NCBI GenBank assembly: GCA_964431835.1
Contig: CAYSKO010000007.1
Location: forward strand, 8,997 to 72,996
Reading direction: 5' to 3'
Origin: an uncultured Planctomycetia bacterium
GTDB taxonomy: Bacteria; Omnitrophota; Gorgyraeia; 2-02-FULL-51-18
DNA length: 64,000 bases
The notes beneath the pieces are model-generated. The model saw only the letters and a list, made by a program, of their open reading frames with translations, had not been told where the DNA came from and made no database searches. Each line of letters begins with the position of its first letter. Position 1 is the first letter of the stretch. Positions 13,337 to 64,000 of the stretch are shown here, in pieces. Both the position numbers and the translations under genes were made by a program.

Positions 13337-14585
13337 GATTCGAGCGTTCCGTGCCTGGCGTTACGATGAACGGAAGACTTCCGACCCCGCACGTCTTTTC
13401 GCGCCCCCGTACGACGTCATCTCGAAAAAACAGCAGAAGGCGCTCTACTCGGCTGATCCGCACAACGTGATCCGCTTGGAACTCGGCGAAGAAAAGCCCG
13501 GCGACTCCGCGCGCGACAACAAGTACGTGCGTGCCGCCCGCTACCTCGGCCAGTGGAAGGGAGCCGGCGTCCTCACTCAGGAAAACGCGCCCTCCCTTTA
13601 CGTCTACGTGCAGGACTACAAGGAGGAAGGGGTGAAGCGCACCCGCCACGGCTTCTTCGCCGCGATGAAGATCGACGAGAAGGCCGTCAAAAAACACGAG
13701 AACACGCTCGCGGGCCCGAAGAAGGACCGCCTCGCGCTCCTTAAGGAAACCAAGACGAACCTGAGCCCGATCTTCGGCCTTTTCGAGGATTCGACGTCCG
13801 AAATCCAAAAGCTCTTGAAGGAAGGTGCGAACTCGAAGCCGGTGTACGACGTCACCGTCGATGGCGTCCGTCACCGCCTGTACGTCGAGACCGACCCCAA
13901 GCGCATCGCGCGGCTTGCGGCCCTCATGAAGAAGAAGCCGATGTTCATCGCCGACGGCCATCACCGCTTCGAAGTCGCCTGCCAGTACAAGAAGCTCGCG
14001 GGTAAAGGCGCCGCCGGCTGGGTCATGACCTATTTCGCCGACTGCCGCAACAATCCGTTCACGATCTGGCCCACGCACCGCCTCGTGAAGTTTCCGACCT
14101 CGATGAAGGACGCGCCGTCCGCGCTCTCCCGCCTGGGGGATGTGGAGCGCGTGTCGAAGCTCGACGCCGTCCTCGAAGCGCTCGCTGAAAGCCGTGAGGA
14201 AGCCCGGGACAAACGCTACTCGTTCGGGTTCTACTCGAAGAAGAGCGGCTACCTCCTCCTCACGCTCGACGACGCGCTCGCGCAAAAGGTGAAGAGGAAC
14301 CCCGTGGATTCGCTGGACGTCTCGGTGCTCCATAAGTTCGTGATCGAGCCCGTATTCAAGATATCGAAGATCGAGAAGTCCGAAGCGATCGACTTCACGC
14401 GCGACGCGCGCGAGGCCGTCGCACGCGTGAACGCGGGCGAGCTCGACGGAGCGCTCTTCCTCCGACCCACGTCGCTCGGCGAGATGATCCTCGCTTCGAA
14501 GAAGGGTCTCAAGATGCCTCAGAAGTCGACCTACTTCTACCCGAAACTTCTTTCGGGACTCGTGTTCCACTCGCTCGAAGGCTAA
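13329..14585 (+). CDS. DUF1015-family protein
   Basis: Its length and conserved blocks (MFIADGHHRFE, PTHRLV) are characteristic of DUF1015. Confidence 0.7.
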   Translation: MPEIRAFRAWRYDERKTSDPARLFAPPYDVISKKQQKALYSADPHNVIRLELGEEKPGDSARDNKYVRAARYLGQWKGAGVLTQENAPSLYVYVQDYKEEGVKRTRHGFFAAMKIDEKAVKKHENTLAGPKKDRLALLKETKTNLSPIFGLFEDSTSEIQKLLKEGANSKPVYDVTVDGVRHRLYVETDPKRIARLAALMKKKPMFIADGHHRFEVACQYKKLAGKGAAGWVMTYFADCRNNPFTIWPTHRLVKFPTSMKDAPSALSRLGDVERVSKLDAVLEALAESREEARDKRYSFGFYSKKSGYLLLTLDDALAQKVKRNPVDSLDVSVLHKFVIEPVFKISKIEKSEAIDFTRDAREAVARVNAGELDGALFLRPTSLGEMILASKKGLKMPQKSTYFYPKLLSGLVFHSLEG

Positions 14586-14587
14586 AA

Positions 14588-15301
14588 ATGCACAAACCGC
14601 GCTCGCTCACTTCGTTGTCGCTCTTTTTCCCGTGCTACAACGAGAAAGAGAACGTCGGCACCATGATCGAGCAGGCCATCGAGGTGGGGGAAACCTACGG
14701 CGTCGACTACGAGGTGATCGTCGTCGACGACGGCAGCCGCGACGGCTCGGCCGAGATCGTGAAGAAGTGGTCCGAGAAGAACGCGCGCGTGCGCTTGGTG
14801 GCCCACGAGCGCAACATGGGCTACGGCGCCGCTCTGCGTACGGGCTTGGCCGCCGCTGAGAAGGACCTCGTTTTCCTGACCGACGGCGACAACCAGTTCC
14901 GTCTGGCCGACATCGAGAAGCTGTTTTCGAAGATCGACGGCTGCGACGTGGTCACGGGATACCGCATCCAGCGCCGCGACGACGCCCGGCGCGTGATCCA
15001 AGGGCGGCTCTGGACCTCGCTCAATCGCACGCTCTTTGGCCTCAAGGTCCGCGACGTCGACTGCGCGTTCAAGCTCTTCCGCAAGAAGGCCTTAAAGGAC
15101 CTGCGTCTCGAGTCGAACCAGCTTCTGATTCACGCCGAGATCCTGGCGAGGCTCCAGCGTAAGGGCTTTCGGATCGAGGAGATAGGCGTCACGCATTACG
15201 CCCGGACCGCCGGAAAGCCGAGCGCGACAGGCCTTTCGCGCATCCTGAAGACCTTCTTCGAGCTTTTCCGGCTTTGGGGCCGAATCCGCTCCGAAAAGTG
15301 A
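14588..15301 (+). CDS. Family-2 glycosyltransferase (polyprenyl-phosphate sugar transferase, DPM1/ArnC-like)
   Basis: LSLFFPCYNEKEN, VVDDGSRDGS and the DxD motif (TDGDNQ). Confidence 0.8.
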   Translation: MHKPRSLTSLSLFFPCYNEKENVGTMIEQAIEVGETYGVDYEVIVVDDGSRDGSAEIVKKWSEKNARVRLVAHERNMGYGAALRTGLAAAEKDLVFLTDGDNQFRLADIEKLFSKIDGCDVVTGYRIQRRDDARRVIQGRLWTSLNRTLFGLKVRDVDCAFKLFRKKALKDLRLESNQLLIHAEILARLQRKGFRIEEIGVTHYARTAGKPSATGLSRILKTFFELFRLWGRIRSEK

Positions 15302-15308
15302 CCGCGGC

Positions 15309-15335
15309 GCCCCCGATTCCCGTTGAATCGGGGGC
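15309..15335 (+). promoter_or_regulatory. Strong hairpin (11-bp stem GCCCCCGATTC/GAATCGGGGGC, 5-nt loop) between the GT2 gene and accD; the right arm contains the only SD-like GGGGG for the accD start
   Basis: Perfect inverted repeat read directly, with no downstream T-tract. Confidence 0.5.
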
Positions 15336-15341
15336 CCGCTT

Positions 15342-16211
15342 ATGTTAAGATTCACGGATACCATGCCCTTCGACACCAAACTAAAAGTCAACACGATCCG
15401 CATCCTCCGGCGACGGGATATTCCCGAAGGGCTTTGGACGAAGTGCGAGGAATGCGGCGAGATCATCTACAACAAGACCCTGGAGGAAGACGCCAAGGTC
15501 TGTCCGAAGTGCGACTATCACTTCACCCTCTCGGCTCCCGAGCGCGTTGCCCAACTCACCGACGAAGGCACGTTCCAGGAATTCTTCTCCGAAGTCCGCT
15601 CCGGCGATCCTCTCAAGTTCAAGGGCCCCAAGTCGTACGTCGCCAAGATCAAGGAAGATCAGACCGCGACCGGCCTTACCGACGCGGTCGTCACCGGCGT
15701 CGGCCAGGTGAACGGCACCAAGCTCGCTCTCGGCGTCACGGATTCGCGTTTCATCATGGGCTCGATGGGCTCCGTGGTGGGTGAGCGCCTCACGCGTCTC
15801 ATCGAGAAGGCCACCGCCGAAAAGCTTCCGGTCGTTATTGTCTCGGGCTCAGGCGGCGGCGCGCGCATGTACGAAGGCATGTTCTCGCTCATGCAGATGG
15901 CTAAGACCTCACAGGCGCTCGCCAAGCTCCACGAGGCCGGCGGCCTCTTCATCTCGGTGCTTACGAATCCGACGATGGCCGGCGTCATGGCGAGCTTCGC
16001 TTCGCTCGGTGATCTCATCGTAGCAGAACCAAAGGCGCTCATCGGTTTCACCGGTCCGCGCGTCATCGAACAGACGATCCGCCAGAAACTGCCCGAAGGT
16101 TTCCAGACTTCCGAATTTCTCCTTGAGCATGGCATGATCGACAAGATCATCCACCGCCGTCAGCTCAAAGGCGCTCTTCACCAGTACATCAACTTTTTCA
16201 ACCGTTCGTAG
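15342..16211 (+). CDS. accD: Acetyl-CoA carboxylase carboxyltransferase beta subunit AccD
   Basis: N-terminal C4 zinc finger (CEECGEIIY...CPKCDYH) and the carboxyltransferase domain (GSGGGARMYEG). The alternative start ATG 15363 (MPFDTK...) gives an E. coli-like N-terminal length. Confidence 0.9.
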   Translation: MLRFTDTMPFDTKLKVNTIRILRRRDIPEGLWTKCEECGEIIYNKTLEEDAKVCPKCDYHFTLSAPERVAQLTDEGTFQEFFSEVRSGDPLKFKGPKSYVAKIKEDQTATGLTDAVVTGVGQVNGTKLALGVTDSRFIMGSMGSVVGERLTRLIEKATAEKLPVVIVSGSGGGARMYEGMFSLMQMAKTSQALAKLHEAGGLFISVLTNPTMAGVMASFASLGDLIVAEPKALIGFTGPRVIEQTIRQKLPEGFQTSEFLLEHGMIDKIIHRRQLKGALHQYINFFNRS

Positions 16212-24569: not shown

Positions 24570-25319
24570 GTGGAAGAGCTGAAGGGCGTAATCCTGGCCG
24601 GCGGCCTTGGCACGCGCCTTTGGCCCCTTACGAAGATCACGAACAAGCACCTTCTCCCGGTCTACGACAAGCCGATGATCTACTATCCGCTCGCCTCGCT
24701 CGTTGAAGCGGGAATCACCGACATTTCGATCGTCACCGGCGGCAATCATGCGGGTGAATTCCTCCGTCTTTTGGGCGACGGCCACGCGTTTGGCCTGAAC
24801 CACATTAATTACACCTACCAGGAAGGCGAGGGCGGCATCGCGCAGGCGCTCGGCCTCACGCACTACTTCACCAAGGGCGCGCGGACTGTCGTGGTCCTCG
24901 GCGACAACCTCTACGAGGACAGTCTGCAGCCGTTCGTGGAACGCTACCGGAAGCAGAAAAAAGGTGCGCGCGTTCTCTTAAAGCGAGTCGAAGATCCTGA
25001 GCGTTTCGGCGTCGCGGAGCTGGCGGGCGGAAAGATCCTTTCGATCGAGGAAAAGCCCCTAAAACCCAAGTCCGACCTCGCCGTCACCGGCGTGTACATG
25101 TACGACGATAGCGTGTTCGATATCATCAGGACGCTTAAACCTTCCAAGCGCGGCGAGCTCGAGATCACCGACGTGAACAACGAGTACATCCGCCGCGGCG
25201 AACTCGAGTACGACGTCCTGGACGGCTGGTGGACGGACAGCGGCACGATCGAGTCTCTCTTACGCGCCAACAGTCTCGTCGCCCAGATGGCGCATGCCAA
25301 GTCCAAGGGGAAGGCGTGA
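24570..25319 (+). CDS. rfbA: Glucose-1-phosphate thymidylyltransferase (RmlA-like, short form)
   Basis: N-terminus GVILAGGLGTRLWPLT...LLPVYDKPMIYYPL is the RmlA signature. 249 aa. Confidence 0.75.
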   Translation: MEELKGVILAGGLGTRLWPLTKITNKHLLPVYDKPMIYYPLASLVEAGITDISIVTGGNHAGEFLRLLGDGHAFGLNHINYTYQEGEGGIAQALGLTHYFTKGARTVVVLGDNLYEDSLQPFVERYRKQKKGARVLLKRVEDPERFGVAELAGGKILSIEEKPLKPKSDLAVTGVYMYDDSVFDIIRTLKPSKRGELEITDVNNEYIRRGELEYDVLDGWWTDSGTIESLLRANSLVAQMAHAKSKGKA

Positions 25320-26335
25320 AGAGTCGGAGGGTCCTCGTCACCGGCGGCGCGGGTTTCATTGGCTCGTGCCTCGTGAAGATGTGGCTCCGCGAGGATCCGA
25401 AGATCGAGATCGTGAATCTCGACAAACTCGCGTACGCGGGAGACCTCGCGCGCTTGAAAGAGATCGAAAATGAGCCGCGGCACCGTTTCGTGCGCGGAGA
25501 CGTCGCGAACCCGGCGGAAGTGGAGAAGGCGATGGCGGGCTGCGACGGCGTGGTGCACACGGCCGCCGAAACGCACGTCGACCGCTCCCTTCTCGACGCC
25601 AAAGCCTTCATCGACACGAACGTCTACGGCACGTACGTTCTTCTCGAGGCCGCCCGTAAGGCGGGCGTCCGGCGTTTCTTGACCGTCAGCACCGACGAAG
25701 TGTACGGCAGCCGTCCGACGGGCTTCTTCAAGGAAGGCGCCCCGATGGCCCCGACGAGCCCCTATTCCGTTTCGAAGACCGCTTCCGACCTCCTCACCCT
25801 TTCCTACACCCACACGCACGGCCTGCCGACGGTCGTCACCCGCGGCTCGAACACCTACGGCAACTGGCAGTATCCCGAGAAAGTCATCCCGCTTTTCATA
25901 TCCAACGCGTTCTCGGACAAAAAGCTTCCTCTGTACGGGGACGGCAAGCAGGTCCGTAACTGGATGCACGTCGACGACCATGCGCGCGCGATCCTCGTCG
26001 CGTTCAAGAAGGGGAAGGCCGGGGAAGCGTACAACGTCTCTTCGAGCGTGTATCTGCGCAACATCGACCTCACGCGCCGTATTCTCAAGCTGCTCGGCAA
26101 GTCCGAGGCTCTCATCGAACGCGTGACCGACCGCGCTGGACACGACCGCCGCTACGCAATCGATTCGCGCCGCCTGCGCGCACTCGGCTGGAAAGAGCGT
26201 GTGTCCTTCGAAAAGGGCCTCACGGCGACAGTTGATTGGTACCGGGTGAACGCGGCCTGGTGGCGCGGCATTAAGGAAAAGAACGCTTTTGGCGAATACT
26301 ATCTGAAAACCTACGGAGACCGCCGCCGGGGATGA
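25316..26335 (+). CDS. rfbB: dTDP-glucose 4,6-dehydratase
   Basis: VTGGAGFIGS motif, the YSVSK catalytic pair and family length. GTGA overlap with the upstream gene. Confidence 0.9.
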   Translation: MKSRRVLVTGGAGFIGSCLVKMWLREDPKIEIVNLDKLAYAGDLARLKEIENEPRHRFVRGDVANPAEVEKAMAGCDGVVHTAAETHVDRSLLDAKAFIDTNVYGTYVLLEAARKAGVRRFLTVSTDEVYGSRPTGFFKEGAPMAPTSPYSVSKTASDLLTLSYTHTHGLPTVVTRGSNTYGNWQYPEKVIPLFISNAFSDKKLPLYGDGKQVRNWMHVDDHARAILVAFKKGKAGEAYNVSSSVYLRNIDLTRRILKLLGKSEALIERVTDRAGHDRRYAIDSRRLRALGWKERVSFEKGLTATVDWYRVNAAWWRGIKEKNAFGEYYLKTYGDRRRG

Positions 26336-27219: not shown

Positions 27220-28145
27220 TTACGGGTTCTGGTGGCTTCGTCGGCCGACACCTCGCGGCTTACGCCGCGGCGCAGGGAGCCGACGTTATTGGGACGCGCC
27301 GTCCGGGCATATCTCTCGAGGGAAAAAGCGTCGAGCTAGACCTTACGAACGTGGATTCCTTGCGGCGAGCAGTGAAGGAAGCGGCGCCCGATCTCATATT
27401 TCATTTGGCCGGCGAATCGTCGGTGGCTGCCTCGTGGCTCTCGCCCGAGCGGACGCTCGAGACGAACGTTCTCGGCCTGCAAAGGCTCCTCGAGGCGGTC
27501 CTTACCGAGAAGCCCTCCGCGCGGGTCCTTGTCGCGTGCTCGAGCGACCAGTACGGCCCGGTGGACGAAGAGGATTTACCGATCGACGAAAGCGCCCCGT
27601 TCCGGCCGACGAGCCCCTACGCGCTTTCGAAGTGCGCGCAGGATCTCATAGCGTATCAGTTCCACTACGCGCACGGCCTCCACGTAGTGCGCACACGGAA
27701 CTTTAGCCAGATCGGTCCCGGCCAGGACGCACGGTTCGCGCCCGGCCGCTTCGCACGCGAGACGGCCCGCATCGAGGCGGGTCTTGCGGAACCGGTGATG
27801 AAGACGGGAAATTTGGACGCGATCCGCGATTTCACGGACGTCCGCGATTCAGTGCGCGCTCTCTGGCTCGTGCTCGATTCGGGACGCCCCGGCGAGGCCT
27901 ATAACGTTTGTTCGGGTCTCGGGCGGCGCGTAGGGGACATCGTGGAGCATTTCCGCCTCCGCTCGCGGAAGCCGTTCCGCGTGGAGACGGATCCGGCGCT
28001 CGTGCGGCCGGTCGATGTGCCGGCCGCCTGGGGCGACGGTTCGAAGCTTTCGAGGGAGACGGGCTGGCGGCCCGAGATTTCGTTTGAACGGGCGCTCGAC
28101 GACCTGCTCGAAGACTGGCGAAAAAAAGTAAAGGAAGGCGCATGA
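27207..28145 (+). CDS. NAD-dependent epimerase/dehydratase family protein (GDP-sugar dehydratase/reductase-like)
   Basis: LITGSGGFVG Rossmann motif and the YALSK catalytic pair. TTG start 27207 is preferred; the in-frame ATG 27168 would overlap rfbD by 52 nt. Confidence 0.75.
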   Translation: MRVLITGSGGFVGRHLAAYAAAQGADVIGTRRPGISLEGKSVELDLTNVDSLRRAVKEAAPDLIFHLAGESSVAASWLSPERTLETNVLGLQRLLEAVLTEKPSARVLVACSSDQYGPVDEEDLPIDESAPFRPTSPYALSKCAQDLIAYQFHYAHGLHVVRTRNFSQIGPGQDARFAPGRFARETARIEAGLAEPVMKTGNLDAIRDFTDVRDSVRALWLVLDSGRPGEAYNVCSGLGRRVGDIVEHFRLRSRKPFRVETDPALVRPVDVPAAWGDGSKLSRETGWRPEISFERALDDLLEDWRKKVKEGA

Positions 28146-29458
28146 AGGGCATCGAACCCAAGAGCATCGAATTGAAGATCAAGGACCGCTCCCTCCGCGT
28201 GGGGATCGTCGGCCTCGGATACGTCGGTCTTCCCCTGGCGGTCGCTTTCGCGAAAGCCGGTTTCGGGACCACCGGCGTCGACGTCGACCCCCGTAAAGTC
28301 CGCTCGCTGACCGGCGGTAAATCGTACGTGTTGGACGTGCCGTCGGCCGACGTGAAGGCCCTCGTTCGCTCCCGGAAGCTCCGCGCGACATCCGATTACG
28401 CAGCGCTCGCCACGGTCGACGCCGTGATCATTTGCGTGCCGACGCCGCTTTCGAAGACGAAGGAACCCGATGTCTCGTATATCGTCGACGCGACCAAACG
28501 TATCGCCCAGCGGCTGAAGAAAGGCCAGCTCATTGTGCTCGAGAGCACGACTTATCCGGGCACCACCGAAGAGGTGATGCTCCCGCTTCTCGAGCGCTCG
28601 GGACTTAAAGTGGAGCGAGACTTCTTCCTCGCGTTCTCGCCCGAGCGCGTCGATCCCGGCAACAAATCGTTCGACACGGTGTCGATCCCGAAGGTCGTCG
28701 GCGGAATCGGGCCCGCTTCGACACGCGCCGTGACGGCCCTCTACGCGTCCGTGATCCGCCGCATCGTTCCGGTGTCCTCGGCGAAGACAGCCGAGATGGT
28801 GAAGCTTCTCGAGAATACGTTCCGAAGCGTCAATATCGGGCTCATCAACGAAGTCGCGCTCATGTGCGACCGTCTCGGCATCGACGTCTGGGAAGTGATC
28901 GAGGCCGCAAAGACGAAGCCCTTTGGTTTCATGCCATTCTATCCCGGGCCGGGTCTCGGGGGGCACTGCCTTCCTATTGATCCTCTGTACCTTTCCTGGA
29001 AATCGCGCCTGCACGGCTTCGAGGCCCGGCTCATCGAGCTGGCCTCCGCGGTGAACGAATCGATGCCTCATTACGTGGTCCAGAAGGTGGCGCAGCTTCT
29101 GAACGACCGCCGCGTGCCGCTCAAGAACGCGTCGGTCCTGGTCCTCGGCGTCGCTTACAAGCGGGACGTCGACGATCTGCGTGAATCGCCGGCGCTCGAA
29201 GTGATCGGCGGTCTCGTGAAGGGTGGGGCGCGCGTTTCTTTCGCGGACCCGCACATCGCATCGCTTTCGATGGCCGGAAAGACGCTGAAGGCAAAGCCCC
29301 TCACCGCGTCGCTTCTCGCCGCTCAGGACTGTTCGGTCGTGATCACCGACCACGCGGGATTCGACTACGACCTCGTCGCAAAAAACGCGAAGCTCGTCCT
29401 CGACACCCGGAACGCGATGCGCCGCCATAAAGGCCGCTCGCACGTGCATTTTCTTTAA
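28142..29458 (+). CDS. Nucleotide-sugar dehydrogenase, UDP-N-acetyl-D-glucosamine/mannosamine 6-dehydrogenase type (WbpA/WecC/TviB family)
   Basis: GLGYVGLPLA Rossmann motif, the catalytic GPGLGGHCLPID block and a 438-aa length. Confidence 0.85.
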   Translation: MKGIEPKSIELKIKDRSLRVGIVGLGYVGLPLAVAFAKAGFGTTGVDVDPRKVRSLTGGKSYVLDVPSADVKALVRSRKLRATSDYAALATVDAVIICVPTPLSKTKEPDVSYIVDATKRIAQRLKKGQLIVLESTTYPGTTEEVMLPLLERSGLKVERDFFLAFSPERVDPGNKSFDTVSIPKVVGGIGPASTRAVTALYASVIRRIVPVSSAKTAEMVKLLENTFRSVNIGLINEVALMCDRLGIDVWEVIEAAKTKPFGFMPFYPGPGLGGHCLPIDPLYLSWKSRLHGFEARLIELASAVNESMPHYVVQKVAQLLNDRRVPLKNASVLVLGVAYKRDVDDLRESPALEVIGGLVKGGARVSFADPHIASLSMAGKTLKAKPLTASLLAAQDCSVVITDHAGFDYDLVAKNAKLVLDTRNAMRRHKGRSHVHFL

Positions 29459-39675: not shown

Positions 39676-39966
39676 ATGGCCGACATCGATCTTAAGAACG
39701 TCGCGAAGCTCGCGCGCCTCCACCTCACCGACGACGAAATCCGTCACCTGGAAGGCCAGGTGAAAGGGATACTCGACTTCGTCGAGCAGCTGAAGGAAGT
39801 AAACGTCGAGGGCATCGAGCCTACGACCCACCCGTTCCCGGTCCGGGACGTCTTCCGCGAAGACGAGCCGAAGCCCTCCCTCAAGATCGAAGAGTTCCTG
39901 AAGACGGCTCCCAAGGCCAAAGGCCGCTTCTTCGAGGTCCCGAAGATCATCGAGGATAAATCGTGA
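39676..39966 (+). CDS. gatC: Asp-tRNA(Asn)/Glu-tRNA(Gln) amidotransferase subunit C
   Basis: GatC family N-terminus ([19 protein letters not shown]) and its operon position before gatA/gatB. Confidence 0.9.
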
Positions 39967-41405
39967 GCTTGAACTTCGCCGAAATGACCGCCTCCGCGCT
40001 CGCGGAAGCCTACGCCGCCGGCGCCACCCAGAAGGACGTCCTCGACTCCGTTCGCGCAGCCGCCCAAACCAAAGACGCGGCCATCCGGGCCTACGTGAAG
40101 CTGGAGGGCGCCCAGCCCAAGCACCGCAAAGCCGAAAAGAAATCGCCGCTCTGGGGCGTCCCCGTCGCGGTGAAGGACAATATCTGCGTCGAAGGGCAGG
40201 AAGCCACCTGCGGTTCCAAAATCCTCCAAAATTATGTGGCGCCCTACAACGCCACGGTCGTCGAGAAGCTCTTGGACGCCGGCGCCGTGATTTACGGCCG
40301 CACGAACATGGACGAGTTCGCGTTCGGATCGAGCTGCGAAACATCTTTTTACGGCCCCACGAAGAATCCGCGCGATCTCACCCGTGTTCCCGGCGGCTCG
40401 AGCGGCGGTTCCGCGGCGAGCGTCGCGGCGCATGCGGCCGTCCTTTCCCTGGGCTCGGACACGGGCGGTTCGATCCGCCAGCCGGCCTCTTTCTGCGGAA
40501 TCGTCGGGCTTAAGCCCACCTACGGCCGCGTGTCGCGCTACGGCCTCATCGCGTTCGCTTCCTCGCTCGATCAAATCGGCCCGTTCACGAAGGACGTCCG
40601 CGATTCCGCGCTCCTTCTTCAGGTGATCGCGGGCCACGACCCGAAAGATTCGACTTCCGCCGAAGTGCCCGTCCCCGATTACGCGTCGTTCCTCGGGAAA
40701 GATGTGAAGGGGATGCGGATCGGCATTCCGAAGGAATACGTCGCCAGCGGCCTCGGCGCCGACGTGAAGAAGGCGATGGACGACGCCGTGAAGACTCTCG
40801 AGGCGCTCGGCGCGACCGTCTCCGAAATCTCGCTGCCGCACACGAAGTACGCGGTAAACGTGTATTACATCGTCGCCCCCTCGGAAGCGAGCTCCAATCT
40901 TTCGCGCTTCGACGGCGTCCGCTTCGGTTTCCGCGAGGCCGCCGCGGACGCGCTCGTTCCGATGTACGAACGCTCGCGCGGCACCGGCTTCGGCGCCGAG
41001 GCCAAGCGCAGAATCATCCTAGGCACCTACAGCCTTTCTTCCGGCTACTACGACGCCTACTATCTCCGCGCGATGAAAGTGCGCACGCTGATTAAGCGCG
41101 ATTTCGACGAGGCGTTCGCGAAGGTCGACGCGATCCTTACGCCCACCGCGCCCTCCGCGGCGTTCAAATTCGGCGAGAAATCGAAGAACCCGCTTGAGAT
41201 GTACCTCTCGGATATCTTCACGATCTCGGCGAACCTGGCCGGCGTCCCGGCGATCTCGGTGCCGGGCGGCCTTTCCGCGGCGGAAGGCCTCCCGATCGGC
41301 CTCCAGTTCATGACGAAGCCTTTCGACGAGGGTAATCTCTTCCGCGTGGCGCACGCCTTCGAGCAGGCCACCGACTGGCACAAGAAACTGGGGAACGTGA
41401 AATGA
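39963..41405 (+). CDS. gatA: Glutamyl-tRNA(Gln) amidotransferase subunit A
   Basis: Amidase signature ([12 protein letters not shown]) and the Ser-cisSer-Lys triad context. Confidence 0.95.
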
Positions 41406-42844
41406 GCCTCATCCCGACGATCGGACTCGAGGTGCACGTTCAGCTGAACACGAAGACGAAGATCTTCTGCGCGTGCGCGGTGCGTTTCGGAGACCAGCCC
41501 AATTCGAACGTCTGCCCGGTGTGCCTCGGCCTTCCGGGCGTCCTGCCCGTCCTCAACCGCGAGGTGTTCAAGCTCGGCCTGCGCGCGGTCGTCGCACTCG
41601 GCGGCGAGCCCTCGGAGCGCGTGAAGTTCGACCGCAAAAATTACTACTACCCCGATCTGCCCAAGGGCTACCAGATCTCCCAGTTCGACCAACCGATCGG
41701 CCGCGGAGGATTCGTCGAGATCGAGACGAAAACGGGCCCGAAGCGCGTGCGGCTGAACCGCCTCCATCTGGAGGAGGACGCAGGGAAGCTCCTCCACGAC
41801 CAGTCGCCGACTTCGAGCCTGGTGGATCTGAACCGCGCCGGAACGCCTCTCGCCGAGATCGTGAGCGAACCCGATCTCGACTCCGCCGACGAGGCGTACG
41901 CGTATCTTACGAATTTGAAGGCGATCCTCCGCTCCATCGGCGTGTCGGAATGCGACATGGAAAAAGGACAGCTTCGCTGCGACGCAAACGTATCCGTCCG
42001 CAAGTCGAAGTCCGAGCCGCTGGGCACGAAGGTCGAGGTCAAGAATTTGAACTCGTTCAAAGCGGTCAAAGCCGCGATCGAGCACGAGATCGAACGCCAG
42101 ACCGCCGCCCTCGGAAAAGGGGAGAAGCTTTTTCAAGAAACGCGCCTTTGGGACGACGGCAAGGAAAAGACCTTTACGATGCGTTCGAAGGAAGAGGCGC
42201 ACGACTACCGTTATTTCCCAGAGCCCGACCTCGTCCCGTTCACGCTTACGAAGGAGGCGATCGAGGAGGCCCGGAAGTCCCTCCCCGAGCTCCCGAAAGC
42301 AAAGAAAGAGCGTTTCGTTTCCCAATTCCAGCTTTCGGATTACGATGCGGCGCTCCTGACCTCGCAGAAGGAAGTCGCGGATTTTTTCGAGAAAACCGTC
42401 GGCGAGTTCAAGCTCGAGCCAAAGTCGGCCGCCAACTGGATCACGGGCCCCGTTTTCGCGTATTTGGGCGAGAAGAACCTCGCGATCGACGGCACCGCAC
42501 TCTCGCCGAAGCTTCTCGCGCGCACCGCGGGTCTCGTGCAGGCGGGGAAGATGAGTTTCCAAGCGGCGAAGGAGAAGGTGCTTCCGCTCGTCATGGAAAC
42601 CGGCCGCTGCCCCGAGGAAATCATGAACGAGAAGGGCCTCGCGCAGGTTTCGGACGACGGGGCGCTCGACGGCTGGATCGCCGAAGTGGTCGCGGCGAAC
42701 GAGAAGGTCGTAAACGAATTCAAATCCGGTAAGGACGGCGCAGTCATGTTCCTCGTCGGCCAGGTCATGAAAAAAAGCGGCGGCAAGGCCAATCCTGGCA
42801 AGGTGCAGGAGCGCCTCCGCCAGCGCCTGGCCGCCTCCGCGTGA
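41402..42844 (+). CDS. gatB: Aspartyl/glutamyl-tRNA amidotransferase subunit B
   Basis: GatB N-terminal blocks ([26 protein letters not shown]) and the C-terminal YqeY-like domain. Confidence 0.95.
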
Positions 42845-57894: not shown

Positions 57895-59433
57895 ATGGAA
57901 ACCCTTTTAATCATCGACTTCGGTTCCCAGTACAACCAGCTCATCGCCCGCCGGGTGCGCGAGTCGAAGGTGTACTGCGAGATCGTTCCGCCCACGATCA
58001 CCGCCGACCAGATCCGCGCCAAAGGGAACGTAAAGGGGATCATCCTTTCCGGCGGCCCGGCGAGCGTGTACTTAAAGAACGCGCCTCAGCTCGACGCGGG
58101 CTATCTCGAGCTCGGCCTTCCGATCTTCGGCATTTGCTACGGCATGCAGGCCCTTTCGCATCTTTTGGGTGGCAAGGTCTGCCGCGCGGAAGAGAAAGAA
58201 TTCGGCCGCGCCGATCTTTTCGTGAAAAGCTCCGGCGGCTCGCTCTTTAAGGGCGTCCCCCGGAAGTCTATTTCCTGGATGAGCCACGGCGATTACGTTT
58301 CGATCATGCCGAAAGGCTTCCAGACCACTGCCTTTACGAAGAACACCAAAGTCGCCGCATTCGAGAACGACGCGAAGAAGATCTACGGCGTCCAGTTCCA
58401 CCCCGAGGTCGCGCACTCCGAGCACGGTAAGAAGGTGATCGAGAACTTCATTAAGGTCTGCGGTTTCAAGAAGTCGTGGACGATGGAGAACTTCATCAAG
58501 GAGAAGACCCGCGAGATCAAGGAGAAGGTCGGGACCGACCACGTGATCCTCGGCCTCTCGGGCGGCGTGGATAGCTCCGTCGCCGCCGCGCTCATGGCGA
58601 AGGCGCTCGGGAAGCAGCTCACCTGCATTTTCGTGAACAACGGCCTGCTAAGGAAGAACGAGGTCGAGTACGTCCGCCAGGCATTCGCCGGCAAATTCAA
58701 TTTCAATCTCGACATCGTGGACGCCGAGAAGCATTTCCTCACCGCGCTGAAAGGCGTCACGGACCCGGAGAAGAAACGCAAGGTCATCGGCCACGAGTTC
58801 ATCTACGCCTTCGACCGCGAAGCGAAGAAAATCAAGAACGCGAAGTGGCTCGGGCAGGGGACGCTGTACCCCGACGTGATCGAGAGTAAGTCCGCCTTCG
58901 GCGGCCCCACCGCCGTCATCAAGAGCCACCACAACGTGGGCGGCCTCCCTGAGAAGATGAAGCTCAAGCTCATCGAGCCCCTCCGCGAGCTTTTCAAAGA
59001 CGAGGTCCGCGAGCTCGGGAAATCGCTCGGCCTCCCGAAAGAGCTCGTATGGCGCCACCCGTTCCCGGGCCCCGGCCTGGCCGTGCGCGTCTTGGGAGAA
59101 GTCACGAAGGAACGCTGCGACATTTTAAGGGAAGCCGACCACCGCTTCCTGGAAGAACTCCACAAGAGCGGCCTCTACACGAAGATCTGGCAAGCCTTCG
59201 CCGTCCTCCTCCCGGTCCGCTCCGTGGGCGTCATGGGCGACGAACGCACCTACGACAACGTCGTCGCCCTCCGCGCCGTCACCAGCGTCGACGGCATGAC
59301 CGCGGACTGGTTCGATATGCCGAAGGAAGTTTTGGGAAAAGTTTCTAACAGAATCATTAACGAAGTCAAAGGCGTGAACCGCGTCTGCTACGACGTGTCT
59401 AGTAAACCCCCGGCGACTATTGAATGGGAATGA
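57895..59433 (+). CDS. guaA: GMP synthase (glutamine-hydrolysing)
   Basis: GATase catalytic Cys (GICYGMQ) and the PP-loop SGGVDSSV. 512 aa. Confidence 0.95.
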
Positions 59434-59475
59434 GAAGGTAAGCATGAACCGCTTAACCGATAGGGTACGACATGG

Positions 59476-59503
59476 AGCTCAGCATCAGCTGAGTATTTTT
59501 TTT
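59476..59503 (+). terminator. Short hairpin (AGCTCAGC-atca-GCTGAGT) plus T9 run directly after guaA; the likely guaA terminator and the left border of the low-GC islet
   Basis: Read directly. Confidence 0.45.
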
Positions 59504-60137
59504 GAGCTTTTTTAAAAAAGAGAAATACCAAGACCCTTCCTTCCCTCCGCTTTTAGATAACGAAATTGAATTTATAAAAAAACTCGACGTAGATTCCGCG
59601 ACTCGATTCATTGAGACGCATGGAAAAAATAAATCCGCTGATGCCAAAGAGCATATCAGGGAAGCAAATCAATTCGAATTCGATATTTGCAATCTTTTAC
59701 TCAAAGGAGCAGGCGCGGCTTTTACATTATATTTTGCTTTGATCGCATATCTGAAGATAACGCCTTCATTTGTACCATTAATTCTTTGGGCTACTTCTGC
59801 GTATTTAGGCATGCTTCATCAGAAGAAATGGTCTCGGAGATTGTTGGGCATTGGTAAAAGAGAAAACTTAATTTCCATGGAAGCGGCACTTCAAATTTTC
59901 AAGCACAACGATGATAGATGTAAGTTCGTGATGCAGGTATTGAAAGAGCAGTTTTTGTACTTAAGCCGCATAACGGCGAAGCAGAGATTAAATCAAGCAG
60001 ACTATAAGTATGTTGTAGTATTCACAGAACTTCCTTTTTTTCTCATAAATTTACAGATTATTTTAGTTATCCTAGGAATTTTTATCGCCGCAACTCAATT
60101 ATTTCCCAACTCAGTAAGCTTAAATGTTGCTAGTTAG
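59502..60137 (+). CDS. Hypothetical membrane protein (two hydrophobic regions flanking a soluble middle segment), low-GC
   Basis: Open frame of 211 codons with an AT-rich composition. The only start is TTG inside the terminator T-run, so the true start may be an internal ATG. No recognisable domain. Confidence 0.35.
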   Translation: MSFFKKEKYQDPSFPPLLDNEIEFIKKLDVDSATRFIETHGKNKSADAKEHIREANQFEFDICNLLLKGAGAAFTLYFALIAYLKITPSFVPLILWATSAYLGMLHQKKWSRRLLGIGKRENLISMEAALQIFKHNDDRCKFVMQVLKEQFLYLSRITAKQRLNQADYKYVVVFTELPFFLINLQIILVILGIFIAATQLFPNSVSLNVAS

Positions 60138-60190
60138 TCGGCCTTAAAACAAAGTCCTGACAACGTCCTTTAAGCAAAAGAAACTGAACG

Positions 60191-60502
60191 ATGAGTGATT
60201 CGTACTCTGTTCTCGGTCTGAAGCCCGGCGCTTCGAAGGATGAGATTCGAGAGGCGTATCGCGATCTCGTGAAGGTTTGGCATCCGGATCGCTTCGCGCA
60301 CGATCCCGTTTTCCAGAAAAAGGCGCAGGAGAATCTCAAACAGATAAACAAGGCGTACGAGGAGCTTTCGAACGGGACGCAGAATCGAGCCGCGTGCGAG
60401 CGGAGCGTCCGCGTGAAAAAGCATCCCCTTCGTCTTCTGCGGGGAGCGCGAGGACTAGCGCCTCAGCCCATGCGTCGAAGCCGCGCGCGAAAGCTTCTGT
60501 GA
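60191..60502 (+). CDS. J-domain (DnaJ-like) protein
   Basis: YSVLGLKPGASKDEIREAYRDLVKVWHPDRF with the HPD motif. The Arg-rich C-terminus may be low-complexity. Confidence 0.7.
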   Translation: MSDSYSVLGLKPGASKDEIREAYRDLVKVWHPDRFAHDPVFQKKAQENLKQINKAYEELSNGTQNRAACERSVRVKKHPLRLLRGARGLAPQPMRRSRARKLL

Positions 60503-60723
60503 TGTCTTCTCAAAAATGCCATTTCGGCGGTTTGGCGCTCATGTGGACACTCTTTGGGCTTTTGGAACTCGGCGCGGTCGGTGTCTATCAAAGCTCGCCG
60601 CCAGCTCCGTCTACGAACGCTGAGGTGGCTCCCTGGACGGAAGTAGATCCGAAGTCGATCCGGCTCGAAGGGCTCGGTCCGATATTGGTTATTTCACGCT
60701 CGGATCAACGAAAGAGAGAGTAA
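60502..60723 (+). CDS. Small single-TM protein translationally coupled to the J-domain gene (TGATG overlap)
   Basis: ATG at 60502 shares the A of the upstream TGA. A hydrophobic helix (HFGGLALMWTLFGLLELGAVGVY) follows. Alternatively it is the frameshifted C-terminus of the J-domain protein. Confidence 0.35.
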   Translation: MSSQKCHFGGLALMWTLFGLLELGAVGVYQSSPPAPSTNAEVAPWTEVDPKSIRLEGLGPILVISRSDQRKRE

Positions 60724-60887
60724 GAAGCGTACAGGGCACTCCCACTAGCATCGTTGGTAACATGTGGTTGTATGGGTTCGATCACGTCTCCTTCGACTCA
60801 AGTGGAAAGGTCGTGGGGTACCGTAATGACTCCGGAAAGCTTAGAGTGCGATGATCGAAGCATCAACGGAGCGAGAAGGCATCTTCC

Positions 60888-60936
60888 CATACCGGACGTC
60901 GTCCCGACCGACCTTTCGGGACGTCGTCCCAAAACC
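60888..60936. repeat. 49-bp direct repeat, copy 1 (CATACCGGACGTCGTCCCGACCGACCTTTCGGGACGTCGTCCCAAAACC), with an internal 7-bp-stem hairpin
   Basis: Identical at 49/49 to the copy at 61536-61584. Confidence 0.85.
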
Positions 60937-61016
60937 CGGGGATACACAACAACTTATAGGAAGTCATCATCCGAACAGACCGGGCGCCGTCTGAGAAGTA
61001 ATTATCGGGGATCAAA

Positions 61017-61496
61017 ATGAAACGACCCATTCCGCTCGTTATGTCCTTCCTCTTGCTTGCTGGCTGCGCCACGATGAGCAGTCTTCCTAAGACTGCAAAC
61101 GACGTCAATTTCGATTCGAAAGAGGGGAAGACGGGCTGGTCCAAATATGAGGAGACGTTCTTCTTCAGGGGTGTGGACAAGCGCACGACGTACCTGGCGG
61201 CAAAGTCCGGGCTTTCGGACGCGGAATTCACCGTGACACAAGCGGATTTCGAGAAGGGATACGCCAAGGGTAAGCACGGCATGACGGCTTACGACTGGAA
61301 CATCGTGGCGGGCGTGTACGTCAAAGAGATAGAGGGTGGCACTCAGGTGAAGATCGTAGTGGAAGGCTCTAAGGACATCGGCTTCATGGGTGACATGACA
61401 GACCAAAGCTGGCCTCAGAAAATTTACAAGGGTATGCGGGACTACGTCCAAGGCGAGTCCTCCATAACGGATCCGAATAAGAAGATCTTTCAATGA
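61017..61496 (+). CDS. Hypothetical lipoprotein (signal peptide MKRPIPLVMSFLLLAGC with lipobox LAGC)
   Basis: Lipobox read directly. 159 aa, bracketed by the 49-bp direct repeats. No recognised domain. Confidence 0.55.
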   Translation: MKRPIPLVMSFLLLAGCATMSSLPKTANDVNFDSKEGKTGWSKYEETFFFRGVDKRTTYLAAKSGLSDAEFTVTQADFEKGYAKGKHGMTAYDWNIVAGVYVKEIEGGTQVKIVVEGSKDIGFMGDMTDQSWPQKIYKGMRDYVQGESSITDPNKKIFQ

Positions 61497-61535
61497 CGAA
61501 TACGGGAAAGACTGTAAATCATCGTCTTGATACTT

Positions 61536-61584
61536 CATACCGGACGTCGTCCCGACCGACCTTTCGGGACGTCGTCCCAAAACC
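61536..61584. repeat. 49-bp direct repeat, copy 2 (identical to 60888-60936)
   Basis: Read directly. Confidence 0.85.
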
Positions 61585-61663
61585 GGATGGATCGGCCCTT
61601 CATTCTGAAAGAGGCGTAAACAATCGCCTTAAATTAACGCTGTTGCCGACTCCGATTCCAGTC

Positions 61664-62332
61664 TCAGAGCGCGTTACTTTTTCCTATATTACAAACGGAG
61701 CAAAGGGTCCTTAGATTTTCAGTCATTGTCGCTCCACCTTTTGACCATGGCTTGATATGGTCAACATGCAAAACAACCGCCGGATCTTTCGCAGGGCTTG
61801 CACCACACATCTTGCAAATACAGTTATCTCGGATCAAAACCATAGCTCTAAGACGCCAATTGATCTTCCTTGGCCACTTTCCATGATTTATTTTAGAATT
61901 TCCGATGTTAGGGGCCACCTCCATCATCTCGGAATTATTCACAAAATCCCCGAATGCTTGCAGAGCCTTGTTCCAGGATCCAAATCGTTTTTCATAAGTG
62001 CCTAGCGCAAATTTTGAAAGACCCGCGGTTTTTTCCATATCTGACCCTACGGGCTGTCTTCCAAGCTTTTGCCAAACATCGGCTAAATTGCCGAACAACG
62101 TCTCTTCCTTGTTATTCGACGTCAGAACAATTCTTAATCCGGCCACCTCTAGCGCTGTATTCCATGCGCCAAATCGTCTAAGAATTGTGGTCTTTCCAAA
62201 TCTGCCCTTTTCATCATAGGCGGCTGCCGTTAAGGTTGTCTGTCCCATGGATTCCGCGACCCTTCGAATGTCGGCCGCCAACTCCTTATTTGGAATATTT
62301 CGCCTTCTAAGGTTAATTTCAAATTTTTTCAT
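61664..62332 (-). CDS. HNH endonuclease with two N-terminal homing-endonuclease-associated repeats
   Basis: HNH motif (HVDHIKPWSKGG...NLRTLCSVCN) and CxxC pairs. Two RFG(S/A)WN(K/T)AL repeat units are typical of HNH-associated repeats. Confidence 0.8.
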   Translation of the reverse strand: MKKFEINLRRRNIPNKELAADIRRVAESMGQTTLTAAAYDEKGRFGKTTILRRFGAWNTALEVAGLRIVLTSNNKEETLFGNLADVWQKLGRQPVGSDMEKTAGLSKFALGTYEKRFGSWNKALQAFGDFVNNSEMMEVAPNIGNSKINHGKWPRKINWRLRAMVLIRDNCICKMCGASPAKDPAVVLHVDHIKPWSKGGATMTENLRTLCSVCNIGKSNAL

Positions 62333-62336
62333 ACGC

Positions 62337-62792
62337 TCAATCCAAAAATGGCTCTATCCATTTTCTAAATAACTTTAACGCATCCGCCGGCACCACAATC
62401 GGGAAATCAACAAGCGCGTCCACGCCATGCGCCATGAAGTCGCGCGTGTTCCAGGTGACAAATGCGGATACTTTTGCCAAATGCGCCGAGCAAAGGATGG
62501 AGGCATCTCCCTTATCTAATTTGTGTAGAAATCGTTTTGCTTGAGTAGCCGTGGGTTCGGGTGCGATTTCCGGAGCGAGGGCTTTTAAAAGTTCGCGGCT
62601 TTTCTCAACCCGAATAGGAAACTTTTTGGATAAGACGCGGTCTATTTCTATAATAACCTCTTCCGAGACAACCATACTGATCGCGCCACCTTCTACGAGA
62701 CGGATAAGCTCTCCCGCCGCACCTTCCGGAGAAAGCAAAGCCGCTATGTAGGTGCTTGTATCAAAGAAGATGCGGTATCTCGGTATGGCCAT
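62337..62792 (-). CDS. vapC: PIN-domain toxin (VapC-like ribonuclease)
   Basis: N-terminal IFFDTS acidic motif and PIN fold conserved acidic residues. It lies immediately downstream of an AbrB-type antitoxin. Confidence 0.8.
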   Translation of the reverse strand: MAIPRYRIFFDTSTYIAALLSPEGAAGELIRLVEGGAISMVVSEEVIIEIDRVLSKKFPIRVEKSRELLKALAPEIAPEPTATQAKRFLHKLDKGDASILCSAHLAKVSAFVTWNTRDFMAHGVDALVDFPIVVPADALKLFRKWIEPFLD

Positions 62793-63038
62793 TTATGAAC
62801 TTTTGCTGTGGCGAATCTTTTTCAGATCCTTTAAAAGCTCATCCAGCGTGATACCTTTCTCTTTGGATTCTTTCACAAACCCCGCTGATGTAGTTTTAAA
62901 TGTAGAGAGCCCTGGGGTAATCAAAATCCCATTTCCCACTTTGGCTACGGACAAAACAGAGTCCTTCGAAAGATGAAGTGACTCCCTGATGCCTGATGGG
63001 ATCGTCACCTGTCCTTTTTCCCTCATTTTGGTTACCAT
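62793..63038 (-). CDS. vapB: AbrB/MazE/SpoVT-type antitoxin (VapB-like)
   Basis: Swapped-hairpin motif (KGQVTIPSGIRESLHL). ATG with SD GGAG, and its stop abuts the vapC start. The track ORF extends further upstream, but the 81-aa form fits the family. Confidence 0.75.
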   Translation of the reverse strand: MVTKMREKGQVTIPSGIRESLHLSKDSVLSVAKVGNGILITPGLSTFKTTSAGFVKESKEKGITLDELLKDLKKIRHSKSS

Positions 63039-63080
63039 TCTTCTTCTCCTATTTTCATACTGATTCCTACTTTCTAACAA

Positions 63081-63109
63081 AGTGTACCACAGATAGGGGT
63101 GGAATTCAA
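63081..63109 (-). promoter_or_regulatory. Candidate promoter for vapB-vapC-HNH on the minus strand: TTGAAT-17 nt-TACACT
   Basis: Reverse complement read directly. It lies about 45 nt upstream of the vapB ATG. Confidence 0.3.
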
Positions 63110-63458
63110 ATAGCAAACCCCTCTGTGCCAATGTGATCGCAAAAGCGGAGGCGTTACTCCCCGTGACACCCTATTTGCAAAACCGGGCCGCGTCGTTCAA
63201 CATAGGAGCTCTGGCGACCCCAGCCGTGCGCCTCTGCGCACGGCACTCCGGAGGCGGCTGTATAAGGGGTCAAGTCTTTCCCTGACTGCATCTGACGCGT
63301 ATCTATCGCAACGCCGTCGAATATCCGAATCCCATGCGACAAGCTTCTTGAAACGAAAGCAGCTTGAGACGATGGTCCTGTAGGACCCCATAAAATTACT
63401 TGTAGGGCCGATGGTGCAAATAATCTTTGAGTTTATTGTTTGTTTCACTGGACGCGCA

Positions 63459-64000
63459 TCAAATAAATATTTTTATTTTATGTTTTCTAGATCGCAACGC
63501 CATAAAAAAACTATAAGCCAAAGTTAAAATAGTTACAGGCAAAACAAATAATAGCGTGGTTCGACCGAATATCGGCAATAGATCGTGGGCTTGAGCGTTC
63601 AGGATCAAATAGATGATATAGAAAAAATAGTAGGCTAAAAAAATAAACCCTTCCCAGCGTGCAATCAGCCGCCCAGTTAAAAATATCGGCAAGCAAGCAA
63701 ACGCGACCGCGATCATGAACGGTAGATCAAAACCGATGAGGGATCGCGCGACGGGGACAGATCCAGCTCCGGACAACAGACCTGTCAGGCCTCCGACACC
63801 TAAAATATTGAATATGTTGCTACCGATGACATTCCCGATTGCAATATCCTTTTCTCCTTTAAGCGTTGCGACGACTGACGTGAAGATCTCCGGAAACGCT
63901 GTCCCTGCCGCGATGATCGTCAGCGAGATCACTAGATCGCTAACCCCGTACGCCTTAGCAATGGCTACAGCTCCCAATATCAGTCTATTGGACCCGAAAA
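63459..64000 (-). CDS. CaCA-family cation/calcium antiporter (YrbG-like), C-terminal half; the gene continues beyond the window end
   Basis: Alpha-2 repeat motif (GNVIGSNIFNIL) and multiple TM helices. AT-rich composition unlike the core genome. Confidence 0.7.
   Translation of the reverse strand, partial: FGSNRLILGAVAIAKAYGVSDLVISLTIIAAGTAFPEIFTSVVATLKGEKDIAIGNVIGSNIFNILGVGGLTGLLSGAGSVPVARSLIGFDLPFMIAVAFACLPIFLTGRLIARWEGFIFLAYYFFYIIYLILNAQAHDLLPIFGRTTLLFVLPVTILTLAYSFFMALRSRKHKIKIFI

Follow-up and report, generated by a model that had tools for sequence, protein, structure and literature searches.

Accessory DNA of mosaic composition downstream of guaA in a 64-kb stretch of an uncultured bacterial genome

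The stretch of DNA analysed here (64,000 nucleotides, called the window) carries guaA, the gene of GMP synthase, as the last gene of its core and ends in low-GC DNA that runs from position 59434 to at least 64000. This region, referred to as the islet, is probably a flexible accessory region at a lineage-specific hotspot 3' of guaA, built up piecemeal and not as one element; the reading is favoured here with moderate confidence. Regions of this kind are known, and the islet is a routine example of accessory DNA piling up beside a housekeeping gene that is conserved. One more case of a guaA-flank hotspot is thereby recorded, in a lineage with Planctomycetia and Omnitrophota as the labels of its nearest public genomes; in one relative (L003), the guaA site is occupied without an integrase. 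For annotation, the islet flags an ORFan, a toxin-antitoxin (TA) operon with an HNH gene and repetitive extragenic palindromic (REP) elements, and is a warning that the organism's assemblies break at this place.

Composition and gene order at the guaA border

The GC content was 0.620 in the core (1-59433) and 0.475 in the islet (59434-64000), and the drop set in no more than about 100 nt past the guaA stop codon (59433). An earlier note on this DNA had described an abrupt fall after the guaA hairpin from a core of about 65% GC; the fall was confirmed (62.0% to 47.5%), whereas the core value was corrected to 62%. In 400-nt windows, the core had a mean GC of 0.620 (sd 0.032, minimum 0.510) and the islet ranged from 0.38 to 0.58, corresponding to z = -1.2 to -7.4 against the core. 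Over 57-59.5 kb, the tetranucleotide distance to the core had a z of about 0.3; it rose to z = 10.6 over 61.5-64 kb. The GC content at third codon positions (GC3) of 41 core open reading frames (ORFs) was 0.786±0.055 with a minimum of 0.66. Five islet ORFs deviated from these, i.e. hyp211 (0.37), HNH (0.44), AbrB (0.48), CaCA (0.48) and PIN (0.50), with GC3 z values of -5.2 to -7.5 and z values of -3.6 to -4.9 for the codon-adaptation index scored on the core. The GC3 values of the other three, the micro-transmembrane (micro-TM), J-domain and lipoprotein ORFs, were 0.57, 0.64 and 0.71, respectively. The unlike character of the region claimed in the earlier note was thus found in its GC, tetranucleotide and codon-usage profiles alike. 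The DNA after guaA is compositionally foreign in base composition and codon usage, the two properties by which horizontal acquisition is judged, with a marginal deviation in the middle block (block B below).

The islet is a compositional mosaic of at least three blocks and no uniform low-GC unit:

59434-60150: block A, GC 37-39%, with the ORFan
60190-61590: block B, GC 53-58%, with the J-domain gene, the TM ORF and the lipoprotein gene
61600-64000: blocks C-E, GC 42-49%, with the AbrB-PIN-HNH genes and a CaCA gene reaching the window end

By 400-nt window, the GC content was 0.38-0.39 at 59434-60233, 0.51-0.58 at 60234-61633 and 0.42-0.51 at 61434-64000. The description of the region as one inserted low-GC islet was not upheld, block B being near the core in composition, and the presence of three compositional blocks makes a single donor unlikely.

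The gene order was compared with 160 guaA loci obtained from one genome scan and one metagenome scan with GuaA. The closest relatives by GuaA were L083 (a metagenome contig, 77% identity) and L003 (a metagenome-assembled genome (MAG) labelled Planctomycetia, 74%). In tblastx, the window was collinear with both over the whole 10 kb upstream, and the collinearity ended at 59433-59460. The shared upstream order was polA, a glycosyltransferase gene, coaE, rho, rpmE, prfA, prmC, murA, rpsP, trmD, rplS, rnhB and guaA. The similarity among the three stopped at the guaA stop codon, so that the islet starts, as had been claimed, where the gene order common to the two nearest relatives ends; the downstream content differed in all three, and no two of them had any of it in common. 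No homologue of the islet proteins was found within 10 kb of guaA in the 160 other loci; relatives with the same genes after guaA had been named in the earlier note as the finding that would speak against an islet, and none was encountered.

In L003, guaA was followed by 3.4 kb with TPR, HigB/HigA, Gp49-like/XRE and ORF6N genes and then by dnaE, HU and hisS; the GC content of this interval was 41-50% vs 55% in the core. The guaA-dnaE interval is fully bounded and contained no integrase and no tRNA, which indicates that cargo can occupy the guaA site in the absence of a site-specific recombinase. That the mobilising function of the islet lies beyond the window or was lost, as proposed earlier, is consequently not the sole reading. 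The dnaE gene was not found in the window. In L083, guaA was followed by an AsmA/DUF748-like gene, two genes resembling those of REP-associated tyrosine transposases (RAYTs) together with REP elements, and several hypothetical genes, with a GC content of 48-55% vs 63% in the core.

The GC difference between the 3 kb after guaA and the upstream DNA was -0.008 on average (sd 0.028) among 95 loci of other bacteria, and the window was the most extreme with -0.126. When the 95 guaA loci were ranked by GC drop, the window was 1st, L083 2nd and L003 5th. GC drops of 4-10 points in the 3 kb after guaA were also recorded in the unrelated genomes L077, L076, L056 and L070 (Paenibacillus) and L061 (Alkalibacterium), a hint that DNA may have landed at the guaA flank repeatedly and far outside this lineage.

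According to the mechanism proposed for the islet, the region 3' of the guaA terminator would tolerate insertions, and small selfish modules would accumulate there, namely a TA pair, an HNH gene and REP elements moved by a RAYT encoded elsewhere. Strays acquired by recombination would accumulate after guaA as well. At least three separate origins are envisaged: the AT-rich ORFan, the moderately GC-rich block B with two REP copies of the lineage, and the TA-HNH operon with the low-GC CaCA gene. The TA module might stabilise the region by addiction, which is proposed as the reason for its persistence without an integrase. The nuclease activity of the HNH protein and the mobilisation of REP elements by a RAYT are predicted from family membership.

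The islet resembles flexible genomic islets and regions of genomic plasticity in that a conserved housekeeping gene flanks the known side and the cargo differs from genome to genome; the atypical composition, the small accessory genes, the TA modules and the lack of a recombinase in view are further likenesses. Unlike in flexible genomic islets, one flank is in view here, and the hotspot behaviour was deduced from three distantly related genomes and not from a within-species comparison.

Several points weigh against the piecemeal hotspot reading. Neither an empty site nor a variant with part of the blocks was found among the relatives compared (nearest GuaA 74-77% identical); alignment with related genomes, proposed in the earlier note as a check for an empty site, yielded L083 and L003 with cargo of their own. 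The insertion is for this reason deduced from composition and broken synteny alone, and with relatives this distant, ordinary rearrangement could account for part of the synteny break. Block B may be native or come from a close lineage and is not necessarily acquired, since the lipoprotein GC3 is within the core range and the REP-like repeat is common to a relative. The addiction and stabilising role of the TA pair is assumed from family membership. The 49-nt REP-like repeat occurs just twice in the 64 kb, each time within the islet, and no RAYT gene was found in the window. Finally, the low GC persists to the window end (64000), and an integrase, tRNA or att repeat could lie beyond it.

Within the core, the lowest GC3 values (0.66-0.68 vs a mean of 0.79) belonged to the minus-strand ORFs 24944-26143, 27899-29449, 39744-40841 and 41060-42562; these come from crude ORF picking, and their frames are possibly wrong.

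Features, assembly support and the 3' end of guaA

The features of the guaA border and of the islet were as follows:

57895-59433, plus strand: guaA (GMP synthase), last core gene and left border; Pfam GATase and GMP_synt_C, GC3 0.84, core-like
59477-59503, plus strand: hairpin and T-run resembling an intrinsic terminator; 7-pair stem, 4-nt loop, tail ATTTTTTTT, the hairpin itself at 59477-59494
59502-60137, plus strand: ORFan, 211-aa predicted membrane protein (hyp211); GC 37%, GC3 0.37, two strongly hydrophobic segments
60191-60502, plus strand: J-domain protein, 103 aa, with HPD motif; Pfam DnaJ E = 1.7e-16 over residues 3-64, GC3 0.64
60502-60723, plus strand: single-TM ORF, 73 aa; its start overlaps the J-domain stop (TGATG), hydrophobic segment at residues 8-26
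60675-60852, plus strand: open stretch in the third frame, without a start codon; BamE-like signature, Pfam E = 0.11, not significant
60888-60936, plus strand: REP-like palindromic element, copy 1; identical to copy 2 in 49/49 nt
61017-61496, plus strand: lipoprotein, 159 aa; lipobox LAGC with Cys17, GC3 0.71
61536-61584, plus strand: REP-like palindromic element, copy 2; lies where the lipoprotein and HNH genes converge
61664-62332, minus strand: HNH endonuclease, 222 aa, with two homing-endonuclease-associated repeats; HNH_repeat (PF18780) E = 8e-26, HNH (PF01844) E = 2e-12, GC3 0.44
62337-62792, minus strand: PIN-domain toxin, VapC-like, 151 aa; Pfam PIN_3 E = 2.5e-13, ends 4 nt before the HNH start
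62793-63038, minus strand: AbrB/MazE-type antitoxin, 81 aa; MazE_antitoxin E = 7.8e-7, abuts the PIN gene at 62792/62793
63039-63458, no strand: non-coding spacer; its ORFs are without a Pfam match, no Rfam match at E <= 1
63459-64000, minus strand: Ca2+/Na+ antiporter (CaCA/YrbG-like), C-terminal part; Na_Ca_ex E = 3.2e-29, GC 45%, GC3 0.48

The gene list of the earlier note proved largely right (DnaJ, two HNH_repeat and HNH, PIN_3, MazE/AbrB, Na_Ca_ex), and the terminator hairpin with its T-run was found at 59477-59494. The extent of the non-coding stretch, given there as 330 bp, was corrected to 63039-63458, provided that the antitoxin starts at the ATG at 63038.

The junctions were reproduced in other assemblies at 99.96-100% identity, namely in L002 (47895-61535), L177 (58917-60917) and L001 (61413-63426). 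L002 spans the core and blocks A and B; L177 (Logan assembly, from a different sequencing run) covers guaA, block A and the start of B; L001 spans the 3' end of the lipoprotein gene, REP copy 2 and the whole block C. These contigs argue against an assembly artefact, i.e. a metagenomic misjoin, possibly via a repeat, of a 62%-GC genome with lower-GC DNA, as does the middle block, whose near-core composition and lineage repeat are unlike a simple two-genome chimera. An artefact was accordingly judged highly improbable, even though the sequence derives from metagenome assemblies, the other assemblies break at the REP copies (60917, 61535) and the part from 63427 to 64000 is the sole stretch without support from the independent contigs retrieved.

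L002 differed from the window at six positions, all in the core, with 0 differences across the 2.1 kb of the islet after guaA. Three synonymous differences fell within 7 nt (59352, 59355, 59358), 75-80 nt before the guaA stop. This cluster could mark a recombination event at the border of the islet, or it could be due to chance.

The 3' end of guaA is known as an island target elsewhere, as the earlier note had stated: the GIsul2 island uses GAGTGGGA, at the 3' end of the gene, as its insertion site (PMC9376610). In the window, the sequence around the 3' end of guaA is ...ATTGAATGGGAATGA, and that at the position homologous to the GIsul2 target is GAATGGGA. The islet might be the proximal part of a larger integrase-mobilised, GIsul2-like island in the guaA 3' end, with the integrase and the far att site past 64000. 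The abrupt boundary at the guaA stop, the low GC up to the window end with the CaCA gene included, and the documented use of guaA 3' ends by integrases (GAGTGGGA in GIsul2 vs GAATGGGA in the window; PMC9376610) are all consistent with such an island. In contrast, no integrase adjoins guaA: none of the ORFs of 59434-64000 matched integrase, recombinase or transposase families and no tRNA was found in the window, in agreement with what had been reported earlier. The 4.5 kb also contained no repeat of the guaA 3' end, the longest exact copy of 59370-59510 in the remaining 4.5 kb being 8 nt, compared with usually 9-10 in shuffles. Blastn with the 4.6 kb region gave no DNA match to plasmid and phage records, and among viral contigs the region's proteins had distant HNH-domain matches alone. 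Since, in addition, the three compositional blocks argue against one donor, the REP element inside the region is common to the chromosome of a relative and the bounded L003 interval has no integrase, a single integrase-mobilised island was regarded as a possible but rather unlikely explanation.

With the GIsul2-type guaA islands (PMC9376610) the islet shares the position, and the conserved ...IEWE* end of the protein gives a similar motif (GAATGGGA here, GAGTGGGA in GIsul2). It differs from them in having 4.5 kb without integrase, att duplication, conjugation or resistance genes, in its mosaic composition, and in showing no DNA similarity to plasmid or phage records. The guaA terminator hairpin already falls in low-GC DNA and has no conserved counterpart in either L083 or L003.

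The 49-nt repeat and the genes of blocks A and B

The 49-nt repeat is a perfect direct repeat with both copies intergenic. As single-stranded DNA, it folds into a 13-pair stem with one mismatch (-14.4 kcal/mol, z = -3.6) and is thus a short extragenic imperfect palindrome, as REP hairpins are. Its layout, GGAC-N3-GTCC-N14-GGAC-N3-GTCC, was found elsewhere only in L083 among 178 loci, with four copies in the low-GC stretch after its guaA, and one of these copies (CATACCGGACCCCGTCCCAAAGGGGCTTTCGGGACGTGGTCCCAAAAGCC) matched even the flanks of the window's element. L083 carries two RAYT-like Y1 transposase genes (13541-14113, plus strand; 15394-16077, minus strand; Pfam Y1_Tnp), which have GGAC-N3-GTCC hairpin motifs on both sides (13374-16050), four of them in the doublet layout, compared with 0 such motifs in the 13 kb of L083 core preceding these genes. 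The only NCBIfam match of the Y1 genes was REP-associated tyrosine transposase (REP_Tyr_transpos), which was below the cutoff (61 and 37 bits vs 80). As the same layout flanks RAYT-like genes in L083, the 49-nt repeat is best read as a putative REP-type element of this lineage and not as a cassette boundary.

REP/REPIN elements with RAYT transposases have been described (PMC3116915, PMC3337134, PMC3733652). The element of the window is similar to them as an extragenic imperfect palindrome at gene 3' ends and through the same layout on both sides of two Y1 transposase genes in L083. It differs in having two copies here, with no RAYT gene in the window and the L083 transposases below the NCBIfam cutoff, and in carrying CGTC where classical RAYT-linked REPs have a GTAG tag; according to a published survey (PMC3733652), REPs tagged with CGTC have no transposase dedicated to them. 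The contigs of other assemblies stop at the copies, L177 at 60917 (inside copy 1) and L002 at 61535 (one base before copy 2), which suggests further copies of the element elsewhere in the genome, or variation within the population at these points.

The earlier note had described a repeat-bracketed lipoprotein. The repeat was confirmed as perfect over 49 nt, but the lipoprotein gene fits the picture of a gene flanked by two copies of a REP-type genomic repeat better than that of a cassette. The arrangement does resemble integron gene cassettes in that a single ORF stands between two identical, hairpin-forming repeats of the same direction; it differs from them in having no intI and in that the repeat flanks transposase genes in L083. 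The attC core-site consensus is GTTRRRY, and attC sites are longer than 49 nt. The integron-cassette reading was rejected because of the missing intI, the lack of a GTTRRRY match when the 49-nt repeat was inspected visually (without a formal attC search) and the repeats around the RAYT-like genes of L083.

The lipoprotein belongs to a small uncharacterised family with 115 representative clusters at E <= 1e-3, in the alignment of which Cys17 is invariant. Its AlphaFold2 model had a predicted local distance difference test (pLDDT) value of 87.5 and was weakly similar to the BamC N-domain/helix-grip fold (Foldseek E = 1e-4, TM-score 0.48/0.64).

The J-domain protein has an Arg-rich tail after residue 65 that is possibly out of frame. 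The reading frame of the 73-aa TM ORF, which had no family match, is open back to 60277, and the translation of 60675-60852 gave no significant match to solved structures. Judged from its frames, the stretch 60191-60852 may represent one gene with a J-domain, a TM segment and a periplasmic domain, broken by two -1 frameshifts (frames 0, +2, +1). A frame-specific GC3 plot across this putative J-domain-TM-BamE-like gene was ambiguous. The sequence of 60191-60852 was identical in two other assemblies, and the frames are therefore not due to assembly error. The JGI gene call on the matching contig (L002:12276-12530) missed the J-domain ORF and gave an antisense ORF of 84 aa (window 60170-60424, minus strand).

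In block A, the open frame of hyp211 is 214 codons long, compared with 74±17 and a maximum of 138 in shuffles of this AT-rich stretch (0/500 as long), which argues for a real gene. No match to hyp211 was found in Pfam, NCBIfam, PHROG or PADLOC, and a search of 5.8 billion protein clusters for homologues returned the protein itself alone, i.e. it is a strict ORFan. The AlphaFold2 single-sequence model was unusable (pLDDT 46.8).

The properties of block B bear on a further explanation, according to which the whole region is a native, poorly expressed and fast-evolving stretch whose low GC is due to relaxed selection or mutational bias and whose synteny break arose by ordinary rearrangement. Block B is near the core (lipoprotein GC3 of 0.71 vs the core minimum of 0.66) and carries the REP element of the lineage, the closest homologue of the lipoprotein is on a contig of about 60% GC, and the relatives compared are 74-77% identical in GuaA, all of which is in line with a native origin. 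The other blocks are difficult to reconcile with it. The GC3 values of 0.37-0.50 are 5-7.5 sd below those of the 41 core genes, nowhere else in the 59-kb core does the GC of 400-nt windows fall below 0.51, the HNH gene and the PIN-HNH pair are met again in other genomes and settings unrelated to this one, the ORFan is without any relatives, and the cargo differs in all three related genomes. A native origin of the entire region was for these reasons considered improbable.

The AbrB-PIN-HNH operon and the antiporter gene

The AbrB, PIN and HNH genes lie so close together that they are predicted to form one tight operon of a VapBC-like TA pair and a nuclease. The antitoxin scored 31.7 bits against the NCBIfam AbrB domain (cutoff 28.3), and its start was placed at the ATG at 63038, with AGGAG 8 nt upstream and the same start in the JGI call. 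In the PIN protein, the acidic residues D11, E45, D96 and D118 are visible in the translation. The pair has at gene level the constituents of a type II VapBC system, i.e. a PIN toxin with acidic residues and a preceding small DNA-binding antitoxin. The HNH protein has the features of its family, PF18780 in two stretches and CKMC...HVDH...N...CSVCN in the translation.

The resemblance to type II VapBC modules lies in an AbrB/SpoVT-fold antitoxin gene abutting a PIN gene with acidic residues, and in a small, self-contained pair of atypical composition. The difference lies in the third gene of the operon, which follows after 4 nt and encodes an HNH nuclease with homing-endonuclease-associated repeats.

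The HNH family comprised 4301 proteins at E <= 1e-10, and the protein was about 60% identical across MAGs labelled by their sources as Omnitrophota, Deltaproteobacteria, Alphaproteobacteria and Bdellovibrio. Relatives were found in other contexts: alone between cysS and a deaminase gene, after dnaG-rpoD, next to genes for an HTH protein and a Schlafen-like ATPase (one population variant has a serine recombinase there), and paired in tandem with a paralogue. An HNH protein of 82% identity, from a contig otherwise unrelated to the window, was again preceded by a PIN gene of 151 aa with a 4-nt gap, which gives at least one recurrence of the PIN-HNH arrangement in an unrelated setting. As the PIN gene is missing beside other members of the family, the AbrB-PIN-HNH trio is no general system.

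Three further observations on HNH relatives were made. Next to a gene for a protein 67% identical to that of the window, a serine recombinase was present in one contig and a different sequence in another (L173:5860-7182 vs L170:5680-8057). L179:2940-4672 and L180:2074-3806 have tandem HNH_repeat-HNH paralogues, preceded by a small HTH_3 gene and with a gene for a YhcG-type nuclease nearby. In L179-L183, another ORF starts 6-10 nt past the HNH stop. The partner genes with which members of the family work may thus be variable.

Assignment of the trio to an anti-phage defence system was rejected, since no PADLOC system matched AbrB-PIN-HNH and the HNH family is elsewhere unlinked to PIN. PADLOC gave no match for PIN, AbrB or the other ORFs, and only generic HNH-level matches, none stronger than E = 1.5e-8, to PtuB and to restriction enzymes.

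A more far-reaching version was also considered, in which the guaA 3' flank would be an integrase-independent capture site, REP/RAYT would move or trap the cargo, the lipoprotein would be a REP-bounded mobile unit and AbrB-PIN-HNH would work as a three-component, TA-controlled nuclease. This combination was regarded as very doubtful.

The spacer at 63039-63458 presumably holds the promoter of the AbrB-PIN-HNH genes and the 3' flank of the CaCA gene. The sole Rfam match over the spacers of the region was snoR9 (E = 0.33), which is at chance level. The earlier note had called the CaCA gene a fragment. The visible part corresponds to positions 190-312 of the 312 of the TIGR00367 model, and as this is the C-terminal part of the model, the gene is cut by the window end and is not a fragment. 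The best homologues of the antiporter were 53-62% identical to it.

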